Part shown: positions 1 to 8,316 of the stretch, one piece after another
Layout: each line of letters starts with the position of its first letter
Position numbering within the stretch: the first letter of the stretch is position 1
Virus record (IMG/VR): IMGVR_UViG_2872158770_000005
Strand: one strand, 5' to 3'
DNA length: 15,879 nt
Source of the DNA: a virus
Taxonomy: Duplodnaviria > Heunggongvirae > Uroviricota > Caudoviricetes
Notes under the pieces: generated by a model
The model's input: only the letters and a program-made list of their open reading frames with translations
Told to the model about the DNA's origin: nothing
Database searches by the model: none
Made by a program: the position numbers and the translations under genes

Positions 1-504
1 TTATTGATAGTGTTTTATGTTCAGATAATGCCCGATGACTTTGTCATGCAGCTCCACCGATTTTGAGAACGACAGCGACTTCCGTCCCAGCCGTGCCAGG
101 TGCTGCCTCAGATTCAGGTTATGCCGCTCAATTCGCTGCGTATATCGCTTGCTGATTACGTGCAGCTTTCCCTTCAGGCGGGATTCATACAGCGGCCAGC
201 CATCCGTCATCCATATCACCACGTCAAAGGGTGACAGCAGGCTCATAAGACGCCCCAGCGTCGCCATAGTGCGTTCACCGAATACGTGCGCAACAACCGT
301 CTTCCGGAGACTGTCATACGCGTAAAACAGCCAGCGCTGGCGCGATTTAGCCCCGACATAGCCCCACTGTTCGTCCATTTCCGCGCAGACGATGACGTCA
401 CTGCCCGGCTGTATGCGCGAGGTTACCGACTGCGGCCTGAGTTTTTTAAGTGACGTAAAATCGTGTTGAGGCCAACGCCCATAATGCGTGCTGTTGCCCG
501 GCAT
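1..504 (-). CDS. insB: IS1 transposase InsB reading frame (InsAB' made by -1 frameshift)
   Basis: 167-aa ORF recognised as IS1 InsB; A6C slippery run (rc of 441-449) in the insA/insB overlap; residue 5 is Ser here versus Cys in copies B and C. Confidence 0.9.
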
Positions 505-698
505 CCAACGCCATTCATGGCCATATCAATGATTTTCTGGTGCGTACCGGGTTGAGAAGCGGTGTAAGTGAACTGCAGTTGCCATGTTTTACGGCAGTGA
601 GAGCAGAGATAGCGCTGATGTCCGGCAGTGCTTTTGCCGTTACGCACCACCCCGTCAGTAGCTGAACAGGAGGGACAGCTGATAGAAACAGAAGCCAC
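423..698 (-). CDS. insA: IS1 InsA (transposition inhibitor, N-terminal part of transposase)
   Basis: 91-aa ORF with Cys-rich zinc-finger N-terminus (CPSCSATDG...CSHCRK) characteristic of IS1 InsA. Confidence 0.9.
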
Positions 699-905
699 TG
701 GAGCACCTCAAAAACACCATCATACACTAAATCAGTAAGTTGGCAGCATCACCCCGCCACAGAACAATTATTGCTTTTGCCGTTGATGACAATAAAGTTT
801 TTATCGCAGGCGTATACCACGGTGGGCAAATCTATGAAACCGATTTTTTATCCAGTGCACCGTAAAACCCCCATCCTTCAGGGCGTGGCGGATATCAAAC
901 TTTGG

Positions 906-1988
906 TCATTTTCTCTGGCTGATCTTTACCGGATAACCATCCCGAAGATCAATTAAGTGCTCCGGTTCAGAAGCAAACCATGCATAAGATCCCCACGCCA
1001 ATTCTGGTATTGCCTTTTTAAAAGGCAGAGCACTTCTGTCCATAAATGCCGTAAGGAATGCAAGATTTTTCTCGCTGAACCCAGCGTCAATAGCCAAATG
1101 AGTGAGAGTAACTTTTCGTTCCCTGTTTATAGGCCCATCTGTCGCAACTACTTCAGTGAAAACTACAAGCATGTCCGAACCCGTTCGGTCCTCTCCCAAA
1201 TCAATCAAAATAATATCTGGAAGTGCTTTTGAGGCATCAATATTCAGCCCCAATGCTTTTGCCAATACATCATCCTGAGCAACAACTTTATTCCCGGATT
1301 CAGACAACCAGAGCACAGTTGGATTCTTAAGAAAATTAGGAGCAAAAACTTCGATGACGGCCTTAGCTATTGTACTTGACGGGCCCGGAGCTAAAGTTCT
1401 CTTCTCTCCATTTGGGAAAGTGACGACTACGGCATCAGCAGCAATCACTGCCCCTGATTTCAATAAACGCAACCTAGCAAGAGCGGCTTTGTTCAAATGA
1501 TTTTCTTGCCAGGAACTTATTGCACTCAGCAGCGAATCTCCTTCAAGCCCGGCATCAAAGAGTGCTGCAAAAGAGCGATTCAAACTGTAACGAGGACGAG
1601 AGGATGTGGTGGGTATACCTTTACGCTCAACAATTGCATTGCAAGGTATTAGGCCATTTTTTATAGTTTCATCACGTATTGGCTCACGCGTATTTTCCGC
1701 ATACCATGCATCAGCAGGCCTTATCTTTTGTTTAGAGAAAGTCATCTTTACCCAGCTTTCTCTGGACGCATCATCAGTAAGAGCAGCCTGCGAATCTCCC
1801 ATACTTACAACCTGGCTGGGCCTTATCCATCGCCCCAGCCCCTCAACCGCACCAGCATAAAACATGACAAAAATTGTTTTTGCAGCTATTTCCCGAATTA
1901 AATATCCACGATTCTCAGTCCCTTCAGGGAAAATTAATTGTAATCTTTCCCGGATAACATTCAATGGGGGAACAACAGGCAGATTCAT
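906..1988 (-). CDS. Putative Type II restriction endonuclease (cognate partner of the adjacent methyltransferase; family not assignable from sequence alone)
   Basis: 360-aa ORF directly downstream of the methyltransferase with a 4-nt ATGA stop/start overlap (1985-1988) and a GGAG SD; size and position typical of an R gene. No catalytic motif could be assigned by eye. Confidence 0.5.
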   Translation of the reverse strand: MNLPVVPPLNVIRERLQLIFPEGTENRGYLIREIAAKTIFVMFYAGAVEGLGRWIRPSQVVSMGDSQAALTDDASRESWVKMTFSKQKIRPADAWYAENTREPIRDETIKNGLIPCNAIVERKGIPTTSSRPRYSLNRSFAALFDAGLEGDSLLSAISSWQENHLNKAALARLRLLKSGAVIAADAVVVTFPNGEKRTLAPGPSSTIAKAVIEVFAPNFLKNPTVLWLSESGNKVVAQDDVLAKALGLNIDASKALPDIILIDLGEDRTGSDMLVVFTEVVATDGPINRERKVTLTHLAIDAGFSEKNLAFLTAFMDRSALPFKKAIPELAWGSYAWFASEPEHLIDLRDGYPVKISQRK

Positions 1989-3817
1989 GCAATCATCACT
2001 CCATAGAAACCAGCGATAGTTCTCTCAATAATCCGTCTGTGGACGCCAGCATCAATTAACGATTGAATCTCCATCACCTGCTCCAGAGAAGGCAACGGGA
2101 TTGAATTCAATTCATAGGCCGAAACAGCAACACTTCCGCTTATACACCTGAACGCCCGATCGACAACATGCGAATTAAGTAGCATATCAATAACATCAGG
2201 GCGAACCGCAGAGAACAATCCGTTTGAATATACAATATTAATATGGTTTTCAACTACTACGCCACCAGTTTCATCTATAAATCCCTGAGGTAAAATTGCC
2301 GCTAAAATCCTTCTGTCCTGTTCCTTCGATGTTGTCCGCTGAACAAGCACACATTCAGATTTTGTCACAAGGAAACCCTGTTGTGGGGTTATATCGATAT
2401 AGGGAACATGATTTTTTCTGTCTGCACTAAAACGAAAACCAGCTGAAGTTATTGATTCCGCCCAGACTAATGGGTAGCTATTTTTTCCTTTCGTCGTACG
2501 CAACTGCGACTTAAATCGATTCCAGACTAACTGACCTGTAGAGACTGAGTATCCCAGATCAGCTAAACGCGTAGACATCTGTTTTAATACATTAAGAAAA
2601 CAGGCATCATCTTTAACGCGTGGCAAAAGCCACGTTGCTCCACCTTTTTCTATATCAACATTACCTATTTTCTCAATTTTTGCTTTGTTCAACCCCTTAG
2701 GGACAAGTGAGGATACCTGGGCCCGAACTTTATGTTCTCCCGCCTTGAATGCTGTCAACATTGTTTCCTGGAGAACATCGTCAAAGACCCCATCCCTGTC
2801 AGTGACGAAATCAAGGGCATACGGAGTAGTTTTTTCGGTCAAAAGGGTTCGCAGCGCGGTGAAATACTGCCCACCAAGAAAAGAAGTTGGCGTAAGAAAT
2901 GCAATAACTCCTGTTTTCTCTTTAACCATGCGAACAGCTAAGTCGGTGAACAATCCATATAGATTTGCATGACCAAATAACGAACGAGAATATTTTTCTC
3001 TCGTTTTAATATCGAGAGTGACACGTCCGTAAGGCGGATTCCCTACCACAAGATCATAACCAGAAAATTTATCTTGCTGAAGCGCATCAGCAACAATAAT
3101 TGTATCTTCAGGCAATCTACGTTTTACCTTTACACATAGTGGCATTAGTACAGATTCGAGCAATACCAAACTCATCCAAGCCGCAAATGGATCGATTTCT
3201 ATCCCCTTTAAACGACGACTGATTCTCCTCAACATCCATTCAGGGGAAGACCCCTTGTCTTTTTTTAACATTCGAATGGCTACTGGTGCCAAAAATGCAC
3301 CGCCACCACACGCAGGATCAATAACCGATGCATGAGAAAAATCAACACCAGACTTTTCAGCCAGGTCCAAGAGACGCGCTACCAAAGGTGGGGGGGTATA
3401 GTAAGCCCCCAATTCCGAACGGTAAGCGGATGGCAGCATTACCGTATAAATTGACCCAATCAGATATCCAGCGTCCTCCGCCGGAAATTGAGCAATAAGC
3501 TCACCTGTTCGTTCAGCGAGCTCGCGTGCATCACATGGAATGTCTTCTATGTAAACAGTGTGCGGTACTGCCCTCATTTTAATGCTGCTTTTTTGCTTTT
3601 TTGCAAGGGTATCCCAATATGCAGCTACGATGCTGAAGCAGTATGAGCGGGCATGCATCAACCTTGACTGCCCGGTTTTGTAATTGCCCGCATAACCTTT
3701 GGCCATGGCTTTACAAGTTTGATATCTTTCCAGATTAGAAAACTCATTATCTGTAAAAAAATCAAAATGTTGCACATTCATAATGTAAAATCCTAATGTA
3801 TCAAACATGCGGGCCAT
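1985..3817 (-). CDS. N6-adenine DNA methyltransferase, gamma class (Type II modification methylase)
   Basis: Motif order X-I-IV: GAYYTPP, then DPACGGGAFL (AdoMet binding), then NPPYG (catalytic); about 340 aa follow motif IV, consistent with a target-recognition domain. Alternative start at 3784 (MNVQHF...) has a better AGGA SD. Confidence 0.85.
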   Translation of the reverse strand: MARMFDTLGFYIMNVQHFDFFTDNEFSNLERYQTCKAMAKGYAGNYKTGQSRLMHARSYCFSIVAAYWDTLAKKQKSSIKMRAVPHTVYIEDIPCDARELAERTGELIAQFPAEDAGYLIGSIYTVMLPSAYRSELGAYYTPPPLVARLLDLAEKSGVDFSHASVIDPACGGGAFLAPVAIRMLKKDKGSSPEWMLRRISRRLKGIEIDPFAAWMSLVLLESVLMPLCVKVKRRLPEDTIIVADALQQDKFSGYDLVVGNPPYGRVTLDIKTREKYSRSLFGHANLYGLFTDLAVRMVKEKTGVIAFLTPTSFLGGQYFTALRTLLTEKTTPYALDFVTDRDGVFDDVLQETMLTAFKAGEHKVRAQVSSLVPKGLNKAKIEKIGNVDIEKGGATWLLPRVKDDACFLNVLKQMSTRLADLGYSVSTGQLVWNRFKSQLRTTKGKNSYPLVWAESITSAGFRFSADRKNHVPYIDITPQQGFLVTKSECVLVQRTTSKEQDRRILAAILPQGFIDETGGVVVENHINIVYSNGLFSAVRPDVIDMLLNSHVVDRAFRCISGSVAVSAYELNSIPLPSLEQVMEIQSLIDAGVHRRIIERTIAGFYGVMIA

Positions 3818-4031
3818 AACATCTCATGGTGGCGCATAGCAAACTGGCCCGAAGAATATCACGCACCAAGTCGATCTCATAACCCGTTATGACAATAAAT
3901 CTTTGTAGCTGAACTCACTTGGTGATTTGTCAATCATTCCTGGCCTCCAGTTCGTCCTGAATCTCTTTATCGAGTTCACCGTATTTGTTAGTCCTCATCA
4001 CTCACGACTTGACTTCCAGAAATAACCTTGA

Positions 4032-4445
4032 TTATTCGGGGCTATATTTTGTCACCCTGCGTATCCGCGCTTTCGCATTACGCTCAATCTGGATTAGCTT
4101 TTCTATATTTTTTCGCCTTTCCCGCTCCTCCTGGCGCAAGAGCCTTACATCATCTGCCAGTCTGGTTTCTCTTTTCGCCACAGAGAGCATCCAGTCAAAT
4201 GGCTCCACAACTGCACCGCAAATTTTACAGCGGACCTGACGCTCTTTTTCGTCAACCCGGACAGAAGCGTGATGGCAATATGGTCTTTCCGATGGCTCAT
4301 AAAGAAAATTAACCTGATTACGAGGGTTATCCTCTTTTACCGGAAATAAAACAATATTGCTTAACTCATCTTCTGGTTTTATTTCCATGCTCCTCTCCTT
4401 TGATGCGAATGCCAGCGGTAATTGAAGCCTGATAGCTAATTTCAC
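4032..4445 (-). CDS. Hypothetical prophage protein with Cys/His cluster (possible zinc ribbon)
   Basis: ORF with C-H-H...C-x2-C cluster (CHHASVRVDEKERQVRCKICG). Track start at 4445 is GTG; an in-frame ATG at 4388 (MEIKPEDEL...) has a strong SD (AAAGGAGAGGAG). Confidence 0.5.
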   Translation of the reverse strand: MKLAIRLQLPLAFASKERSMEIKPEDELSNIVLFPVKEDNPRNQVNFLYEPSERPYCHHASVRVDEKERQVRCKICGAVVEPFDWMLSVAKRETRLADDVRLLRQEERERRKNIEKLIQIERNAKARIRRVTKYSPE

Positions 4446-4868
4446 TCACAGTACCGCCTCCTGAAAATCACCCTGATAGAAAGCCGGTACACGCTGCATA
4501 ACTTCACTCTTCCGGCACTCGCGACAGATTATGTTCTGATGTCTGTCGTAGCGGCGTATTTCTCCGTCTGGTAATGACCAGATAAGGTCCGGATCAACCA
4601 CAGATGGTTTCTTCAGCTTTGCCCTCGAGAGTTTTTTGCGGGCGTTTTGCCAGTCCTTACGAGCCTGTTCAGACGGGAATAACCCGTAGCCAGAGTTGTA
4701 TACATCCCCACTGGCAACCAGCTCTCTGGCGAGAACGCTTATTAAATATCTTGTCGCCCCGGTTTTAGCTTCCAGTTGTCGTAACGTCTCGCGCCCACTC
4801 TGGCGTACGAGTTCAACAACCTGCCCCTTAATTTTTTCCCGCTCTTCCTGTGTAAATACTTTTGCCAT
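4446..4868 (-). CDS. Hypothetical prophage early protein
   Basis: ORF in operon with neighbours; track start is TTG at 4883, first ATG (MAKVFTQEE...) at 4868; contains a CRECRK motif. Function not recognisable. Confidence 0.5.
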   Translation of the reverse strand: MAKVFTQEEREKIKGQVVELVRQSGRETLRQLEAKTGATRYLISVLARELVASGDVYNSGYGLFPSEQARKDWQNARKKLSRAKLKKPSVVDPDLIWSLPDGEIRRYDRHQNIICRECRKSEVMQRVPAFYQGDFQEAVL

Positions 4869-4883
4869 AAGCGCCCCCGGCAA

Positions 4884-5609
4884 TCACTTTTCCGACACAA
4901 TACGACCGGAGGAATCGACAATCTGTCGAACAATATCCCGGTGCTTGTTCAGCTCCCGCAACGCGGCGCAGACACGCTCCCACTTCTGGACATGACTTTT
5001 CGCCCGACGCAGTTCGCGGTTTGCCATATGCAGCGATGGTAAAACCAGGTCATCCGCTTGCGTTTCGGTGAACGATGGCAACGACTGCACAATGTCCGCC
5101 ACAGTTTCTGTTTTAATTTCTTCCTGTGTTGCAGCTTCCTGTACCGGTAACGCAACACCTGCTGGCTGAGGAAAGACTTTACCATCCGTTTCCGCTATGG
5201 ATGCGGCTTTCGGCTCTGCCGGTAAATCAGCGCCCGGTATGCAGTACCGAAATTTACCGCCCTGATTCACGCGAATCAGACGCCCTTTGCTGATTGCCAT
5301 GGCCAGCGATGAATTCGCCCGGCGGGAGGTAATCCCGAACATCAGTGCCAGCTCATCCGCCGTTTGTGGGCCATGTTGTTCAATCGCCTCAGTCAGCATT
5401 TGCGCTGTCACTTTCGGTACCGGTGACACTGGTTCACTTTCACCAGCCTGAATCAGCCACCACATCGAACCCTTGTTATCCGCTTCACCACGGCGCTTCA
5501 GTTTCCACAGTTCGTTGACCGCATCTTCACGGCTGATTCCAAGGCGGGACGCCACCACATGTGAAGAGGCTCTTTTCAGTGCTTTCAGTGCGTCAAATAC
5601 AGTTTCCAT
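4884..5609 (-). CDS. Hypothetical prophage protein (position matches ydaW-type genes downstream of the DnaC-like gene in Rac-like prophages)
   Basis: ORF with first ATG at 5609 ([11 protein letters not shown]...) preceded by a GGAGGA SD; track start at 5627 is TTG. Gene order as in Rac-like prophages (recalled). Confidence 0.55.
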
Positions 5610-5630
5610 TAAAACATCCTCCAACAAAAA

Positions 5631-6377
5631 TTACTTCACAACTCCCGGAAAGCTGACATTTGAACGCCAGCTATCCCAGTTAAACGTCACCCACCGACAA
5701 CCGTTCATGGTCATGCGGTCCATAATCCTCTCACCAAGAAGCGTGCTCATTGCGGCATGATTCAGGTTTGTTAACATCCCGACACTGCACAGTGATGCTG
5801 TCCGGCGATCAATTATCTGGTGCAATACCACCTGCTCGTTTTTCGTCTCCCGCTGAATGCCTATTTCATCCAGGACCAGCAAATCAACCCCGCAAAGCTC
5901 CTGTAAAAATTTTTCACCGGATTTGCCGTTGTCGTAGCTGTCATGCAACACGCTCATGACATCAGACTCGGTGACGATAATCACGCTGCGCCCCTTCGCC
6001 ATCAGCCGGTTACCCATCGCCGCTGCAAGGTGATTTTTCCCGGTGCCGGTTTTACCGCTGAACACAAAATTCGTGCACCCGGTCATCAGTTCGTCAGCTA
6101 TGGATTTGGCCTGGCTCAGCGCGTATTTTTGCCCGTCGTTCTGCACCTGATAATTCGCAAACGAGCATTTGCTGTGCAGAGGCTGGATGCCCGAACGATT
6201 CAGGATTTTTTCCACCCGCAACTGGCGATTCTGGCGGTTAATCTCCTCGCTGCGTTTTCGTCCTTCAGCAAGTTGCCATTCCCGCCACTCCTCCACCGTC
6301 CGGTACGGTGGAACCGCCCCCTGTGGTGCAAGTCTGTGAATACGTTCAAGAACCCCGGCTGCCGCAATGTTTTTCAT
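5631..6377 (-). CDS. Phage replication protein, DnaC-like helicase loader (AAA+ ATPase)
   Basis: Walker A GKTGTGKNHLAAAMG and Walker B DLLVLDEIG in the arrangement typical of DnaC; lies immediately downstream of the O-like initiator. Confidence 0.85.
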   Translation of the reverse strand: MKNIAAAGVLERIHRLAPQGAVPPYRTVEEWREWQLAEGRKRSEEINRQNRQLRVEKILNRSGIQPLHSKCSFANYQVQNDGQKYALSQAKSIADELMTGCTNFVFSGKTGTGKNHLAAAMGNRLMAKGRSVIIVTESDVMSVLHDSYDNGKSGEKFLQELCGVDLLVLDEIGIQRETKNEQVVLHQIIDRRTASLCSVGMLTNLNHAAMSTLLGERIMDRMTMNGCRWVTFNWDSWRSNVSFPGVVK

Positions 6378-6383
6378 GCCACA

Positions 6384-7448
6384 TCACCCCCTGAATCCCG
6401 GCGGAATTTCGGTATCCGGTTCAGAAATATGATTCACACAACGCTGGTTGTTCGTGCCGCTTACCGGGAGCAACCAGGGGTTTTCAAAATTCCGGTCCGG
6501 CCCAAAAAACGTCGTCGCTCGCTGAACAAATTCCGTTCCCGCTTTCCCGGTCGCCGCCAGGTATCTCGCGTAACGCCTCACACCATCCAGCATGGTCTCT
6601 GGTGGCACCCCCTCGCGCAATCTGGCCTTCCAGGCACTGAATGCGGATTTCTTCGGGTTTGCCCCGGCACGCAACGGGTATTCCCGCCAGACCTGTTCGA
6701 ACACATCCGGATAATCCACTCGTCCCACAGGCTGCCCGGTGTTTTCCGGGGCTACCCGATCGGCTTCCCGCTGAATGGCGGAATCGGCTTCAGGCTGCTG
6801 CAGTTGGAGTGATTGCTCCGGCCTTGCGGTCATCACCTGCTGCACAGCGCCCGAATCGGCTTTCAGCGCATACGCTGAATCGGCTTCCGGTGTCGAGCCT
6901 GCTGGCTGACCAGGATTGACGGTCTGAACATCCCCTGCCTGGTTCGTGGCGTTTTTTACGCCATGGACCATAGTGTTTTGATCTTCTTTATCTGTATCTT
7001 TATCTGTATCTGTCGTGACTCGTCGTGACATGTGCGTGACATTTCGTGACGCGCCGTGACAATCGCCATTTTGTTCCCGCTTTCTTTCCCTCTCTCGCTG
7101 CGCCCTCTTGCGCTCTGCAGGAGATTTTGCGGTTTGCGAAATATTGCCGTTGTCCTCTTTAAGCACCTGGCGTTTTTCCCATCCAGTGATTAAATCACCA
7201 TCAAGTACCCGCCCCTGCATCGTCTGCAAAATTGAATCAATTACCTCTTCTGTCACGTCGAGCGCACTTGCCAAATCTTCTGTCGTGACATCAATGTGAC
7301 CTCGCGTGACATTTCGTGACGCGCTCACCAGGAGGTGGATATACACTGCCATCACTGTTGCAATTGGCTGCCCTGACACCCTGGCAATTGTTCGCCACTT
7401 AGGGTCATTTGGCATGTCATGCCATAATCTGAGCCAGGCGTTAGCCAT
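6384..7448 (-). CDS. Phage replication initiation protein (lambda O-like / YdaU-like)
   Basis: N-terminus MANAWLRLWHDMPNDPKWR and position upstream of the DnaC-like gene; ATG at 7448 with GAGGTGA SD (track start 7454 is GTG); carries internal iteron-like repeats. Confidence 0.7.
   Translation of the reverse strand: MANAWLRLWHDMPNDPKWRTIARVSGQPIATVMAVYIHLLVSASRNVTRGHIDVTTEDLASALDVTEEVIDSILQTMQGRVLDGDLITGWEKRQVLKEDNGNISQTAKSPAERKRAQRERERKREQNGDCHGASRNVTHMSRRVTTDTDKDTDKEDQNTMVHGVKNATNQAGDVQTVNPGQPAGSTPEADSAYALKADSGAVQQVMTARPEQSLQLQQPEADSAIQREADRVAPENTGQPVGRVDYPDVFEQVWREYPLRAGANPKKSAFSAWKARLREGVPPETMLDGVRRYARYLAATGKAGTEFVQRATTFFGPDRNFENPWLLPVSGTNNQRCVNHISEPDTEIPPGFRG
6986..7060. repeat. Tandem 12-bp duplication (CTTTATCTGTAT x2, 6986-7009) followed by five CGTGAC repeats at about 10-bp spacing (7014-7060); candidate replication-origin iterons
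   Basis: Read directly: tgtCGTGACtcgtCGTGACatgtgCGTGACatttCGTGACgcgcCGTGACaat. Lies inside the O-like gene, as ori-lambda lies inside O. Confidence 0.45.
7284..7320. repeat. Second cluster of CGTGAC-type repeats (iteron-like), also inside the O-like gene
   Basis: tgtCGTGACatcaatGTGACctcgCGTGACatttCGTGAC; the 16-mer CGTGACATTTCGTGAC is shared with the first cluster. Confidence 0.4.
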
Positions 7449-7519
7449 ACTCACCTCTTCTGATACCGAATCTTTTTACTCACGAGTTGCCGGGAGCGAT
7501 TCGATATGGCTATTGTCAG

Positions 7520-7945
7520 TCAATGTACTGCCACAGCATTTCCTGCCGGGCCACCACGGTTCATCTGATTGAAACCGGCGATTGCCACTGCGACAAAATC
7601 ATCAGCGTCTCTCACCAGTCGTTCATGCGTCTCCACCAGTTCCCGAAAATAAGCTGAACTGTGGCTGCGCATTCGAGCCACCAGCGGAGGTGGCATTGCC
7701 CTTTCGATCGCAGGTAACAACGCCTGAATTTTTTCAACAGCGTCAGGGGTGTCTTTATCCAGCCAACGGAAAATCTTTTGGGTGTTGAGATAAAGCGTGT
7801 TGTGCTTGCTGTCGTTATGCAGAACCGGAAACGTCATTCCCAGTTCGAAATAAACCCTGGTTATTTCAGCTGCCGGAACTTTTTCACCGTCCGGATGCGC
7901 CCAGGCTTTCATCGCCATGCGGATGTGTTCATGCTTGATTTTCAT
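7520..7945 (-). CDS. YdaT-like prophage protein (Rac-type toxic/regulatory protein)
   Basis: 141-aa ORF starting MKIKHEHI, same size and position as Rac YdaT (recalled); start overlaps the upstream Cro-like stop as ATGA (7942-7945). Confidence 0.6.
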   Translation of the reverse strand: MKIKHEHIRMAMKAWAHPDGEKVPAAEITRVYFELGMTFPVLHNDSKHNTLYLNTQKIFRWLDKDTPDAVEKIQALLPAIERAMPPPLVARMRSHSSAYFRELVETHERLVRDADDFVAVAIAGFNQMNRGGPAGNAVAVH

Positions 7946-8205
7946 GAATCAACCCCCGCCGATGGTTGTGTGTTAGCCTGAAACTCAGCAGGCAAGCCGT
8001 CAGTTGGGTTGGGGTAGGTTTTACTGTCAATCTCATGTGGGGTCACCACCCATCCCGTTGCTTCACACCAACGTAATATTTTTTCTCCTGTAAGTTTTGC
8101 ACGCCCCGTTATAACGTGGCTGACCATCCCTTGGGATGCGCCAACAATCTCAGCAAATGAACTCTGGGTTATATGAAAATGATGCAAATATTCTCCAAGA
8201 TTCAT
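7942..8205 (-). CDS. Cro/YdaS-like HTH DNA-binding protein
   Basis: Helix-turn-helix segment QSSFAEIVGASQGMVSHVITG; divergent from the repressor gene; ATG at 8205 (MNLGEYLHHF...) with SD; track start 8232 is TTG. Confidence 0.65.
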   Translation of the reverse strand: MNLGEYLHHFHITQSSFAEIVGASQGMVSHVITGRAKLTGEKILRWCEATGWVVTPHEIDSKTYPNPTDGLPAEFQANTQPSAGVDS

Positions 8206-8316
8206 AATCCGCCCTATGTGATGTGTTACCAATGCATAATTAATAGCACTGTTATTTTTAAAAGTAAATAGTGATGCTATTTCAAAGTGATTAGCAATCT
8301 TATTAGAATTGGATGT
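8206..8316. promoter_or_regulatory. Divergent promoter/operator region between the Cro-like and CI-like genes (OR-like)
   Basis: Contains near-palindrome AATAGTGATGCTATT (8266-8280), related half-palindrome AATAGCACTGTTATT (8242-8256) and palindrome GATTAGCAATC (8289-8299); possible -35 TTCAAA (8282-8287) and -10 TAGAAT (8305-8310) ending 7 nt before the repressor ATG. Confidence 0.5.

Follow-up and report, generated by a model that had tools for sequence, protein, structure and literature searches.

EcoGIII, a PstI-type restriction-modification (R-M) system carried by Stx2-converting prophages of Escherichia coli O104:H4, O145 and O111, has CTGCAG as its site of methylation and cleavage and confers protection against lambda-like phages (PMC6602927, PMC3893438). 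This Type II system of lambdoid prophages comprises two genes, the methylase gene preceding the nuclease gene with a 4-nt overlap. The founders of the two Pfam domains found in such nucleases (PF06616 and PF17728) are PstI and BsuBI, both specific for CTGCAG, and a structurally characterized member is SdaI (PDB 2IXS; CCTGCAGG), an 8-bp cutter from Streptomyces. On the modification side, M.PstI and M.TaqI are monomeric gamma-class methylases with a C-terminal specificity domain (PMC3874165).

Here we analyze a window of 15,879 nucleotides (IMG/VR record IMGVR_UViG_2872158770_000005, to which all positions refer) from a prophage remnant of Shigella sonnei. Its minus strand carries two ORFs, 1985-3817 (610 aa) and 906-1988 (360 aa), which a first-pass annotation made from the letters alone had read as a Type II methylase paired with an unclassified endonuclease and carried as cargo at the end of the prophage early operon. 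We consider it very likely that they constitute a Type IIP two-gene R-M cassette of the PstI/BsuBI/SdaI lineage, a prophage "moron" whose activity is predicted. The system is already known in kind, being an ordinary, annotated R-M pair with a nuclease of a well-known family: RefSeq (WP_001053102.1 and WP_000113425.1) names the identical proteins as an R-M methylase, labelled "HsdM family", and a BsuBI/PstI-type nuclease. Together with their relatives the two proteins appear to make up a proteobacterial subfamily of their own, with nucleases of ~360 aa and methylases of ~598 aa, and a literature search returned neither a methylome of S. sonnei nor a characterised member of this subfamily.

A predicted methylase-nuclease gene pair

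Direct reading of the sequence confirmed the arrangement of the two ORFs, including their coupling by an ATGA overlap. The overlap comprises 4 bases (1985..1988, minus strand; ...GCATGAATC...), with the ATG of the nuclease gene at 1988-1986 and the TGA of the methylase gene at 1987-1985, and a GGAG is found 10 nt upstream of the nuclease ATG. All related loci that we examined likewise have the methylase followed by the nuclease, with a 4-nt overlap or a gap of at most 2 nt. With the methylase gene placed first and overlapping its partner by ATGA, synthesis of the nuclease would be coupled to prior translation of the methylase.

The nuclease gene (906..1988, minus strand) can be assigned to the BsuBI/PstI/SdaI family on the combined results of Pfam, phmmer, Foldseek and PADLOC searches, so that the epithet "unclassified" no longer applies. 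Residues 188-349 of the protein match positions 2-152 of the 154 in PF06616 (BsuBI_PstI_RE; 9.3e-45, 152.2 bits against a cut-off of 27), and residues 10-172 match the winged-HTH DNA-binding domain PF17728 (1e-31 to 1.2e-30, 106.6 bits against a cut-off of 27); both domains of the family founded by PstI and BsuBI are represented above threshold. The PADLOC model REase_II PDLC03589 matches the entire length of the protein (2.8e-128), and phmmer aligned it with SdaI at 1.8e-16. In a Foldseek search with its AlphaFold model (mean pLDDT 76) SdaI was the sole significant PDB match (E 4.3e-15, probability 1.00), though with a global TM of just 0.39-0.44, a poor superposition of the kind to be expected when a protein consists of two flexibly linked domains and its model is of moderate confidence. 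In view of these values we placed the catalytic residues by sequence alignment.

The nuclease is only ~22% identical to SdaI but shares its two-domain layout and its PD...E-x-V motif; identity to the EcoGIII nuclease, which belongs to the same Pfam family and is shorter by about 40 N-terminal residues, is just 27%. Residues held in common with SdaI and/or the EcoGIII-type enzyme are E213, K234, P257-D258, E279-x-V281 and G285-P286, and a segment of the form W95-Y-A-x-N-T-R-E-x-I-R-x-E-T is common to all three proteins. P257-D258, E279-V280-V281 and K234 align with both enzymes and are invariant in 34 homologues; the protein is full length and retains every residue that is invariant in this set. 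The alignment points to a PD...E-x-V variant of the PD-(D/E)XK active site, with E213, D258 and E279 as the proposed catalytic residues. V281, a family-wide valine, would occupy the position of the canonical lysine, which the invariant K234 probably supplies. We accordingly classify the 360-aa protein as a predicted full-length endonuclease of the BsuBI/PstI/SdaI family, in which the N-terminal winged-HTH domain would read the sequence, as in the SdaI architecture, and the C-terminal PD-(D/E)XK-variant domain would cut unmodified sites.

The methylase displays, in 610-aa numbering, a motif X-like GAYYTPPPL (aa 137-145), motif I VIDPACGGGAFL (aa 165-176; core DPACGGGAF) and motif IV GNPPYG (aa 259-264), followed by ~345 aa; the three motifs and a long extension after motif IV had been noted from the letters. 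The order X, I, IV is that of the gamma class, and the protein aligns to M.TaqI across the NPPY region. Its Pfam matches are to Eco57I (PF07669, 1.7e-13) and N6_Mtase (PF02384, 2.1e-9). Its homology to the BsuBI/EcoGIII-type methylase of Stx2 phages, which is about 100 residues shorter, takes in motif IV as well as the C-terminal recognition region, at only 26% identity over 355 aa. These features identify a putative gamma-class N6-adenine enzyme whose catalytic domain precedes a C-terminal target-recognition domain; like M.PstI it is of the monomeric type, and it would methylate an adenine of the recognition site on both strands. Nearly all homologues are ~598 aa long, and in relatives the stretch from the ATG at 3817 to that at 3781 contains indels that break the frame; hence translation most likely begins at the ATG at 3781 rather than at that of the longest ORF at 3817, and the gene, at 1985..3781 (minus strand), encodes 598 aa.

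That the two activities belong together is indicated by the profiles PADLOC PDLC03359 and phrog_1639, which we take to represent YenI-like fused methylase-nuclease proteins: the methylase matches the N-terminal part and the nuclease the C-terminal part of these ~830-840-aa profiles, whereas in the window two separate, translationally overlapping genes are found. The pair further has the hallmarks of a Type II system, namely adjoining, separate and co-inherited M and R genes devoid of specificity or translocase subunits. One might instead derive the methylase from a system of a different type (Type I HsdM, Type IIG, BREX PglX or MADS) and regard the 360-aa protein as unrelated cargo, in keeping with the RefSeq name "HsdM family" and with weak NCBIfam/PADLOC matches to PglX, mad2 and Type IIG models. 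However, these matches cover the shared methylase core only and lie far below the cut-offs (e.g. 37 bits vs 900), while the best full-length match is the Type II methylase model MTase_II PDLC03338 (3.1e-299); HsdS/HsdR/Res-like, PglZ/BrxC and helicase genes are absent nearby, and the nuclease partner is strictly co-inherited. We therefore reject the BREX, Type I, Type IIG and MADS readings on score and gene context, and deem an origin of this sort exceedingly improbable.

Upstream region and expression

The homology of the Type II cassette to its counterpart in a Kluyvera prophage is limited to 3940..901 and thus includes ~160 nt upstream of the methylase gene (3782..3940, minus strand). The last ~105 nt of this leader are nearly invariant across six enterobacterial cassettes despite saturated synonymous sites (Ks 1-2). 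Comparative alignment revealed in it a conserved TGnTATTCT motif (3861-3853), ~72 nt upstream of the start codon, which is retained in eight distinct cassettes compared, in differing genomic contexts, the Serratia version (CGACATTCT) being weaker. An AGGA ribosome-binding site lies at 3794-3791. The motif resembles an extended -10 promoter element, and the upstream region would probably provide a weak promoter of this type and a ~65-nt leader; a scan of the leader for consensus sigma-70 -35/-10 elements gave no promoter match. With an upstream region of its own the cassette could be active in the lysogen even under repression of the early operon.

The placement of the cassette inside the early operon, as first proposed, accordingly holds in that it lies on the same strand as the early genes and directly downstream of them, but must be modified in that it brings along its own conserved upstream region. 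An alternative reading would make the cassette promoterless and dependent on read-through from the early (pR-like) operon upon induction, with a lytic role in modifying progeny and degrading competitor or host DNA instead of a role in the lysogen. The shared strand agrees with this, and the minus strand of the 3818-4031 gap between cassette and early operon contains no terminator-like site; together with the lack of a consensus promoter in the leader this leaves room for read-through alone. On the other hand, TGnTATTCT is retained in cassettes residing in P2-like prophages and non-phage islands, the ~105-nt leader is far better conserved than synonymous sites, and a nuclease made in a never-methylated cell would be self-destructive. 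The Burkholderia cassette, moreover, has a small HTH gene of its own: alone among those compared, it has a 78-aa ORF adjoining the methylase gene, with XRE-HTH matches that fall below threshold. On this evidence exclusive read-through seems improbable to us.

In the window no small HTH ORF of the kind expected for a C-protein controller occurs in 3818-4031 or elsewhere. We raise, as a tentative suggestion that is more doubtful than probable, that either the leader, with its TGnTATTCT motif and a possible helix involving the ribosome-binding site and start codon, would serve as a controller-independent device timing methylase and nuclease upon entry into a new cell, or the recognition sequence would differ from CTGCAG. 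An RNAalifold consensus of six leaders was weak (-8.6 kcal/mol), with an unfavourable covariation term and few compensatory pairs, and an Rfam search of the cassette returned nothing. A scan of 596 Gb of genome contigs with the leader 16-mer TATGCGCCACCATGAG, too short a query for this purpose, gave chance matches alone, in unrelated phyla. CTGCAG occurs 0 times in the 3-kb cassette and 6 times in the window, a sample too small for inferring specificity.

The predicted R-M pair would shield the lysogen against phage and plasmid DNA that enters unmodified, and would make loss of the element costly, in line with the roles in defence and addiction that may be expected of it. In S. sonnei it may hinder transformation and phage infection and may yield an m6A methylation motif; its recognition site would matter to anyone engineering or phage-typing strains that carry the cassette.

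Genomic context, mobility and selection

The cassette is co-oriented with, and directly downstream of, the prophage early/replication genes (4032..8232, minus strand), which we delineated with Pfam, PHROGs and the RefSeq annotation of a near-identical E. coli prophage. They encode a phrog_1621 Zn-ribbon protein, a Ren-like DUF977 protein, a DUF1627 protein, a DnaC-like loader, a replication initiator, and cII/YdaT-like and Cro-like proteins. Its position after the replication genes differs from that of EcoGIII, which adjoins cI, and would correspond to a moron slot in a Rac-like lambdoid prophage remnant, with the replication module on one side and the nin/Q module on the other. In other E. 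coli prophages different genes occupy this slot. The impression that the block is AT-richer than its surroundings is borne out by a GC content of 43.6% for the cassette (901-3940) as against 52.4% for the early genes (4446-8232) and 53.1% for IS1, and by a GC3 of 0.36-0.37 vs 0.56-0.62.

On its other side the cassette is flanked by an IS1 (copy A, 1..753, minus strand) that is cut by the window edge and was recognized by its InsA/InsB ORFs and by repeats identical to those of further copies at ~10263-11030 and 12276-13043. Adjoining it at 755..865 (plus strand), convergent with the nuclease gene, is a parE toxin remnant of the last 36 codons and the stop, whose translation equals the C-terminus of the 103-aa ParE of E. 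coli FDAARGOS_943. In that strain the same cassette (99.4-99.8% identity) occupies the corresponding prophage slot, IS1 is absent and the flanking parD-parE is intact; homology to this relative begins at 754. The comparison indicates that IS1 inserted later, truncating parE, and is not part of the cassette. The IS1 copy taken at first as a boundary does abut the block, but nothing links it to the arrival of the genes: delivery by IS1 is ruled out because the IS1-free E. coli relative carries the same cassette.

The methylase-nuclease arrangement recurs in all 12 distinct relatives examined (17 fetched loci), which come from Kluyvera, Klebsiella, Citrobacter, Salmonella, Enterobacter, Serratia, Erwinia, Burkholderia, Pseudomonas and E. 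coli; the methylase is thus no orphan, and the family matched by its 360-aa partner is one of nucleases. These cassettes sit in the same slot of lambdoid prophages, in P2-like prophages and in chromosomal islands, which, along with the foreign base composition, upholds the earlier view of the pair as horizontally acquired, mobile cargo. Across Proteobacteria, one and the same cassette hops between this variable lambdoid slot, P2-like prophages and chromosomal islands. The exact protein sequences are present in at least 1000 S. sonnei contigs, and 2 of 5426 complete E. coli genomes carry the cassette, so that a PstI-family R-M cassette is a feature of S. sonnei and, rarely, of E. coli.

Both genes are under strong purifying selection, with Ka/Ks of 0.045-0.073 at Ks >1. 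This bears on the possibility that the pair, intact in sequence, is silent or nuclease-dead in S. sonnei, leaving an effectively solitary methylase or nothing expressed at all. The prophage is in an advanced state of decay (three IS1 copies, one IS3-family element, the truncated parE); a related nuclease gene in phage ArgO145 is frameshifted; and methylation by M.EcoGIII has been reported to alter the expression of ~1900 genes (PMC6602927), all of which would fit such a state. Yet we regard it as quite unlikely: the nuclease ORF is full length and lacks none of the family-invariant residues, its Ka/Ks of 0.05-0.07 is as low as that of the methylase, and the identical nuclease sequence has been kept throughout the S. 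sonnei contigs.

A cognate and mobile gene pair

Two minus-strand ORFs, a methylase gene whose longest frame spans 1985-3817 (610 aa) and a nuclease gene at 906-1988 (360 aa), lie exactly where the first-pass annotation had placed them, and their coupling through a tetranucleotide ATGA is borne out by the sequence, the nuclease ATG (1988-1986) overlapping the methylase TGA (1987-1985). A GGAG stands 10 nt upstream of the nuclease start. At every related locus examined a gene for a ~598-aa methylase is directly followed by one for a ~360-aa nuclease, the junction being either a 4-nt overlap or a gap of at most 2 nt. These loci reside in lambdoid prophages (Kluyvera, Klebsiella, Citrobacter, Salmonella, Enterobacter and E. 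coli FDAARGOS_943), in P2-like prophages (Serratia, Erwinia) and in non-phage islands (Burkholderia, Pseudomonas, Klebsiella africana). In the lambdoid prophages its position is constant: the replication, PerC and DUF977 genes precede the pair, and it is followed by the DinI or ParDE, RusA, DUF968 and Q genes; other E. coli prophages hold different genes in the slot occupied here by the cassette. Only 3940..901 of the window is homologous to the Kluyvera prophage (81% identity), and these limits give the cassette a length of ~3.04 kb. Purifying selection on both genes is strong (Ka/Ks 0.045-0.073 at Ks 1-2); synonymous sites are saturated between cassettes. At least 1000 contigs that bear the name Shigella sonnei encode methylase and nuclease proteins of exactly these sequences, and of 5426 complete E. 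coli genomes only 2 have the cassette. The central reading of the first-pass annotation, that of a Type II restriction-modification pair carried as prophage cargo, is right; the system is of a known kind, and the two genes form a cognate, mobile pair. The block had also been described as AT-richer than the replication genes, and the cassette (901-3940) indeed has 43.6% GC against 52.4% in the early genes (4446-8232), with GC3 of 0.36-0.37 versus 0.56-0.62 in the comparison genes.

Family assignment of the nuclease

The fold of the 360-aa protein had initially been left unassigned. Profile searches recovered, each far above its gathering score, both domains that Pfam defines for BsuBI/PstI restriction endonucleases: a helix-turn-helix domain at the N-terminus (PF17728; 1.2e-30, aa 10-172) and a catalytic one (PF06616; 9.3e-45, aa 188-349). 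Among solved structures its only relative by sequence is SdaI, a Streptomyces 8-bp cutter (PDB 2IXS; 1.8e-16 over aa 96-349). Structure prediction with AlphaFold from 34 homologues (mean pLDDT 76) led to SdaI as well, the sole PDB entry that Foldseek matched significantly (4.3e-15, probability 1.0); global TM-scores came out low (0.39-0.44), which a two-domain architecture would lead one to expect. The PADLOC Type II REase profile covers the protein end to end (2.8e-128), and the identical RefSeq entry WP_001053102.1 is already named "BsuBI/PstI family type II restriction endonuclease". Judged by sequence and predicted structure, the nuclease is unambiguously a textbook member of the BsuBI/PstI/SdaI family.

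Alignment with SdaI and with an intact EcoGIII-type nuclease from an Stx2a phage revealed the family motif P257-D258...E279-x-V281...G285-P286, together with E213 and K234, all of these residues being invariant among the 34 homologues. The position of the canonical PD-(D/E)XK lysine is a valine in all three aligned enzymes, so that its loss characterises the family and does not mark a defective enzyme; K234 may act as the replacement lysine. A segment of the N-terminal domain, W-Y-A-x-N-T-R-E-x-I-R, recurs in EcoGIII (CTGCAG) and SdaI (CCTGCAGG), and hints at a recognition site with a related core. That the site actually contains CTGCAG is possible but less likely than not.

The methylase and its start

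The methylase displays, in order, the motifs GAYYTPPPL, VIDPACGGGAFL and GNPPYG, with ~345 residues after the last, in keeping with its initial identification by motifs and with the long extension reported after motif IV. It matched the Pfam families Eco57I and N6_Mtase, aligned with M.TaqI around NPPY, and was matched by the full-length PADLOC Type II MTase profile (3.1e-299). Stx2 phages encode a 489-aa methylase of the BsuBI/EcoGIII type that aligns with the window's enzyme from motif IV to the C-terminus (26% identity over 355 residues). The extension thus comprises the rest of the catalytic domain and a C-terminal target-recognition domain, the usual layout in monomeric gamma methylases, among them M.TaqI and M.PstI (PMC3874165). 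Readings as BREX PglX, MADS or Type IIG gave weak matches, confined to the common core and far below the cut-offs.

Both RefSeq and the longest-ORF rule set the start at 3817 (610 aa). Because nearly all homologues are ~598 aa (98% query coverage), and because frame-breaking 1-3-nt indels lie between ATG 3817 and ATG 3781 in related cassettes, the true start is almost certainly 3781 (598 aa); an AGGA (3794-3791) precedes it.

The closest functional precedent is EcoGIII, a PstI-type system of Stx2 prophages with CTGCAG as the site of both methylation and cleavage; it confers protection against lambda-like phages (PMC6602927, PMC3893438). Identity to EcoGIII-type proteins is only 27% for the nuclease and 26% for the methylase, and the window pair occupies a different prophage slot. 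Its proteins are members of a distinct, widespread proteobacterial subfamily, for which a literature search found no methylome or biochemical data. In phage ArgO145 the EcoGIII-type nuclease gene (5824-6778 of the locus) carries, according to its annotation, a frameshift and in-frame stops, and the methylase gene is intact, an example of nuclease decay that leaves a solitary prophage methylase.

Expression signals

The cassette shares the orientation of the early operon, with no terminator-like site in between, so read-through upon induction is possible. The cassette also comes with an upstream region of its own. The ~105 nt before the methylase start are nearly invariant in six enterobacterial cassettes, and far more conserved than synonymous sites. 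Within them, TG-n-TATTCT (3861-3853), ~72 nt ahead of the start codon, persists in the eight distinct cassettes of the comparison, which come from varied contexts, the Serratia version being weaker. The motif looks like an extended -10 promoter; a standard -35/-10 scan gave no match in the leader. RNAalifold support for leader structure is weak; the ribosome-binding site and the start codon may lie within a helix, in which a few changes are compensatory. The leader (3782-3897, minus strand) also holds repeated GTTATG/ATGAGAT words and an inverted repeat CATAAC-GG-GTTATG, conserved only within enterobacterial lambdoid cassettes. The window contains no controller-protein gene. At the Burkholderia cepacia locus a 78-aa ORF (5965-6201) with sub-threshold XRE-type HTH matches terminates 4 nt short of the methylase gene, and may encode a controller protein absent from the enterobacterial cassettes; AT-rich inverted repeats precede it.

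IS1 insertion and prophage decay

IS1 copy A (1-753, minus strand) adjoins the cassette block and bounds it as first noted, but its interpretation as a sign of acquisition does not hold. E. coli FDAARGOS_943 carries the cassette at 99.4-99.8% identity, without IS1, in an otherwise complete prophage where an intact toxin-antitoxin pair, parD-parE, adjoins it. Homology of the window to this prophage begins at 754, positions 755-865 (plus strand) code for precisely the 36 C-terminal residues of its ParE, and parD and the 5' part of parE are replaced by IS1. It follows that IS1 inserted later into parE, and that it is incidental and no clue to the arrival of the restriction-modification genes.

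The DnaC-like, Cro-like and Q genes of the FDAARGOS_943 prophage are annotated as frameshifted; the DnaC-like (5631-6377) and Cro-like (7942-8232) ORFs of the window are open. A 289-aa ORF (5943-6812, plus strand), antisense to the replication genes in a GC-rich stretch, is probably a spurious shadow ORF. The window holds three IS1 copies (1-753, ~10263-11030 and ~12276-13043), identical over their first 300 nt and with InsB differing by one or two residues between copies; with an IS3-family transposase orfB (14723-15541), all within 16 kb, they fit a heavily decayed Shigella sonnei prophage. Rfam matches above the gathering score to the Hfq-binding RNA isrK (11559-11635, plus strand, 61 bits) and to C4 antisense RNA (11661-11748, plus strand, 77 bits) both overlap the beginning of a long plus-strand ORF (11524-12297), whose C-terminal half resembles Rha-family regulator ORFs of Stx2 phages and whose end overlaps the third IS1 copy.
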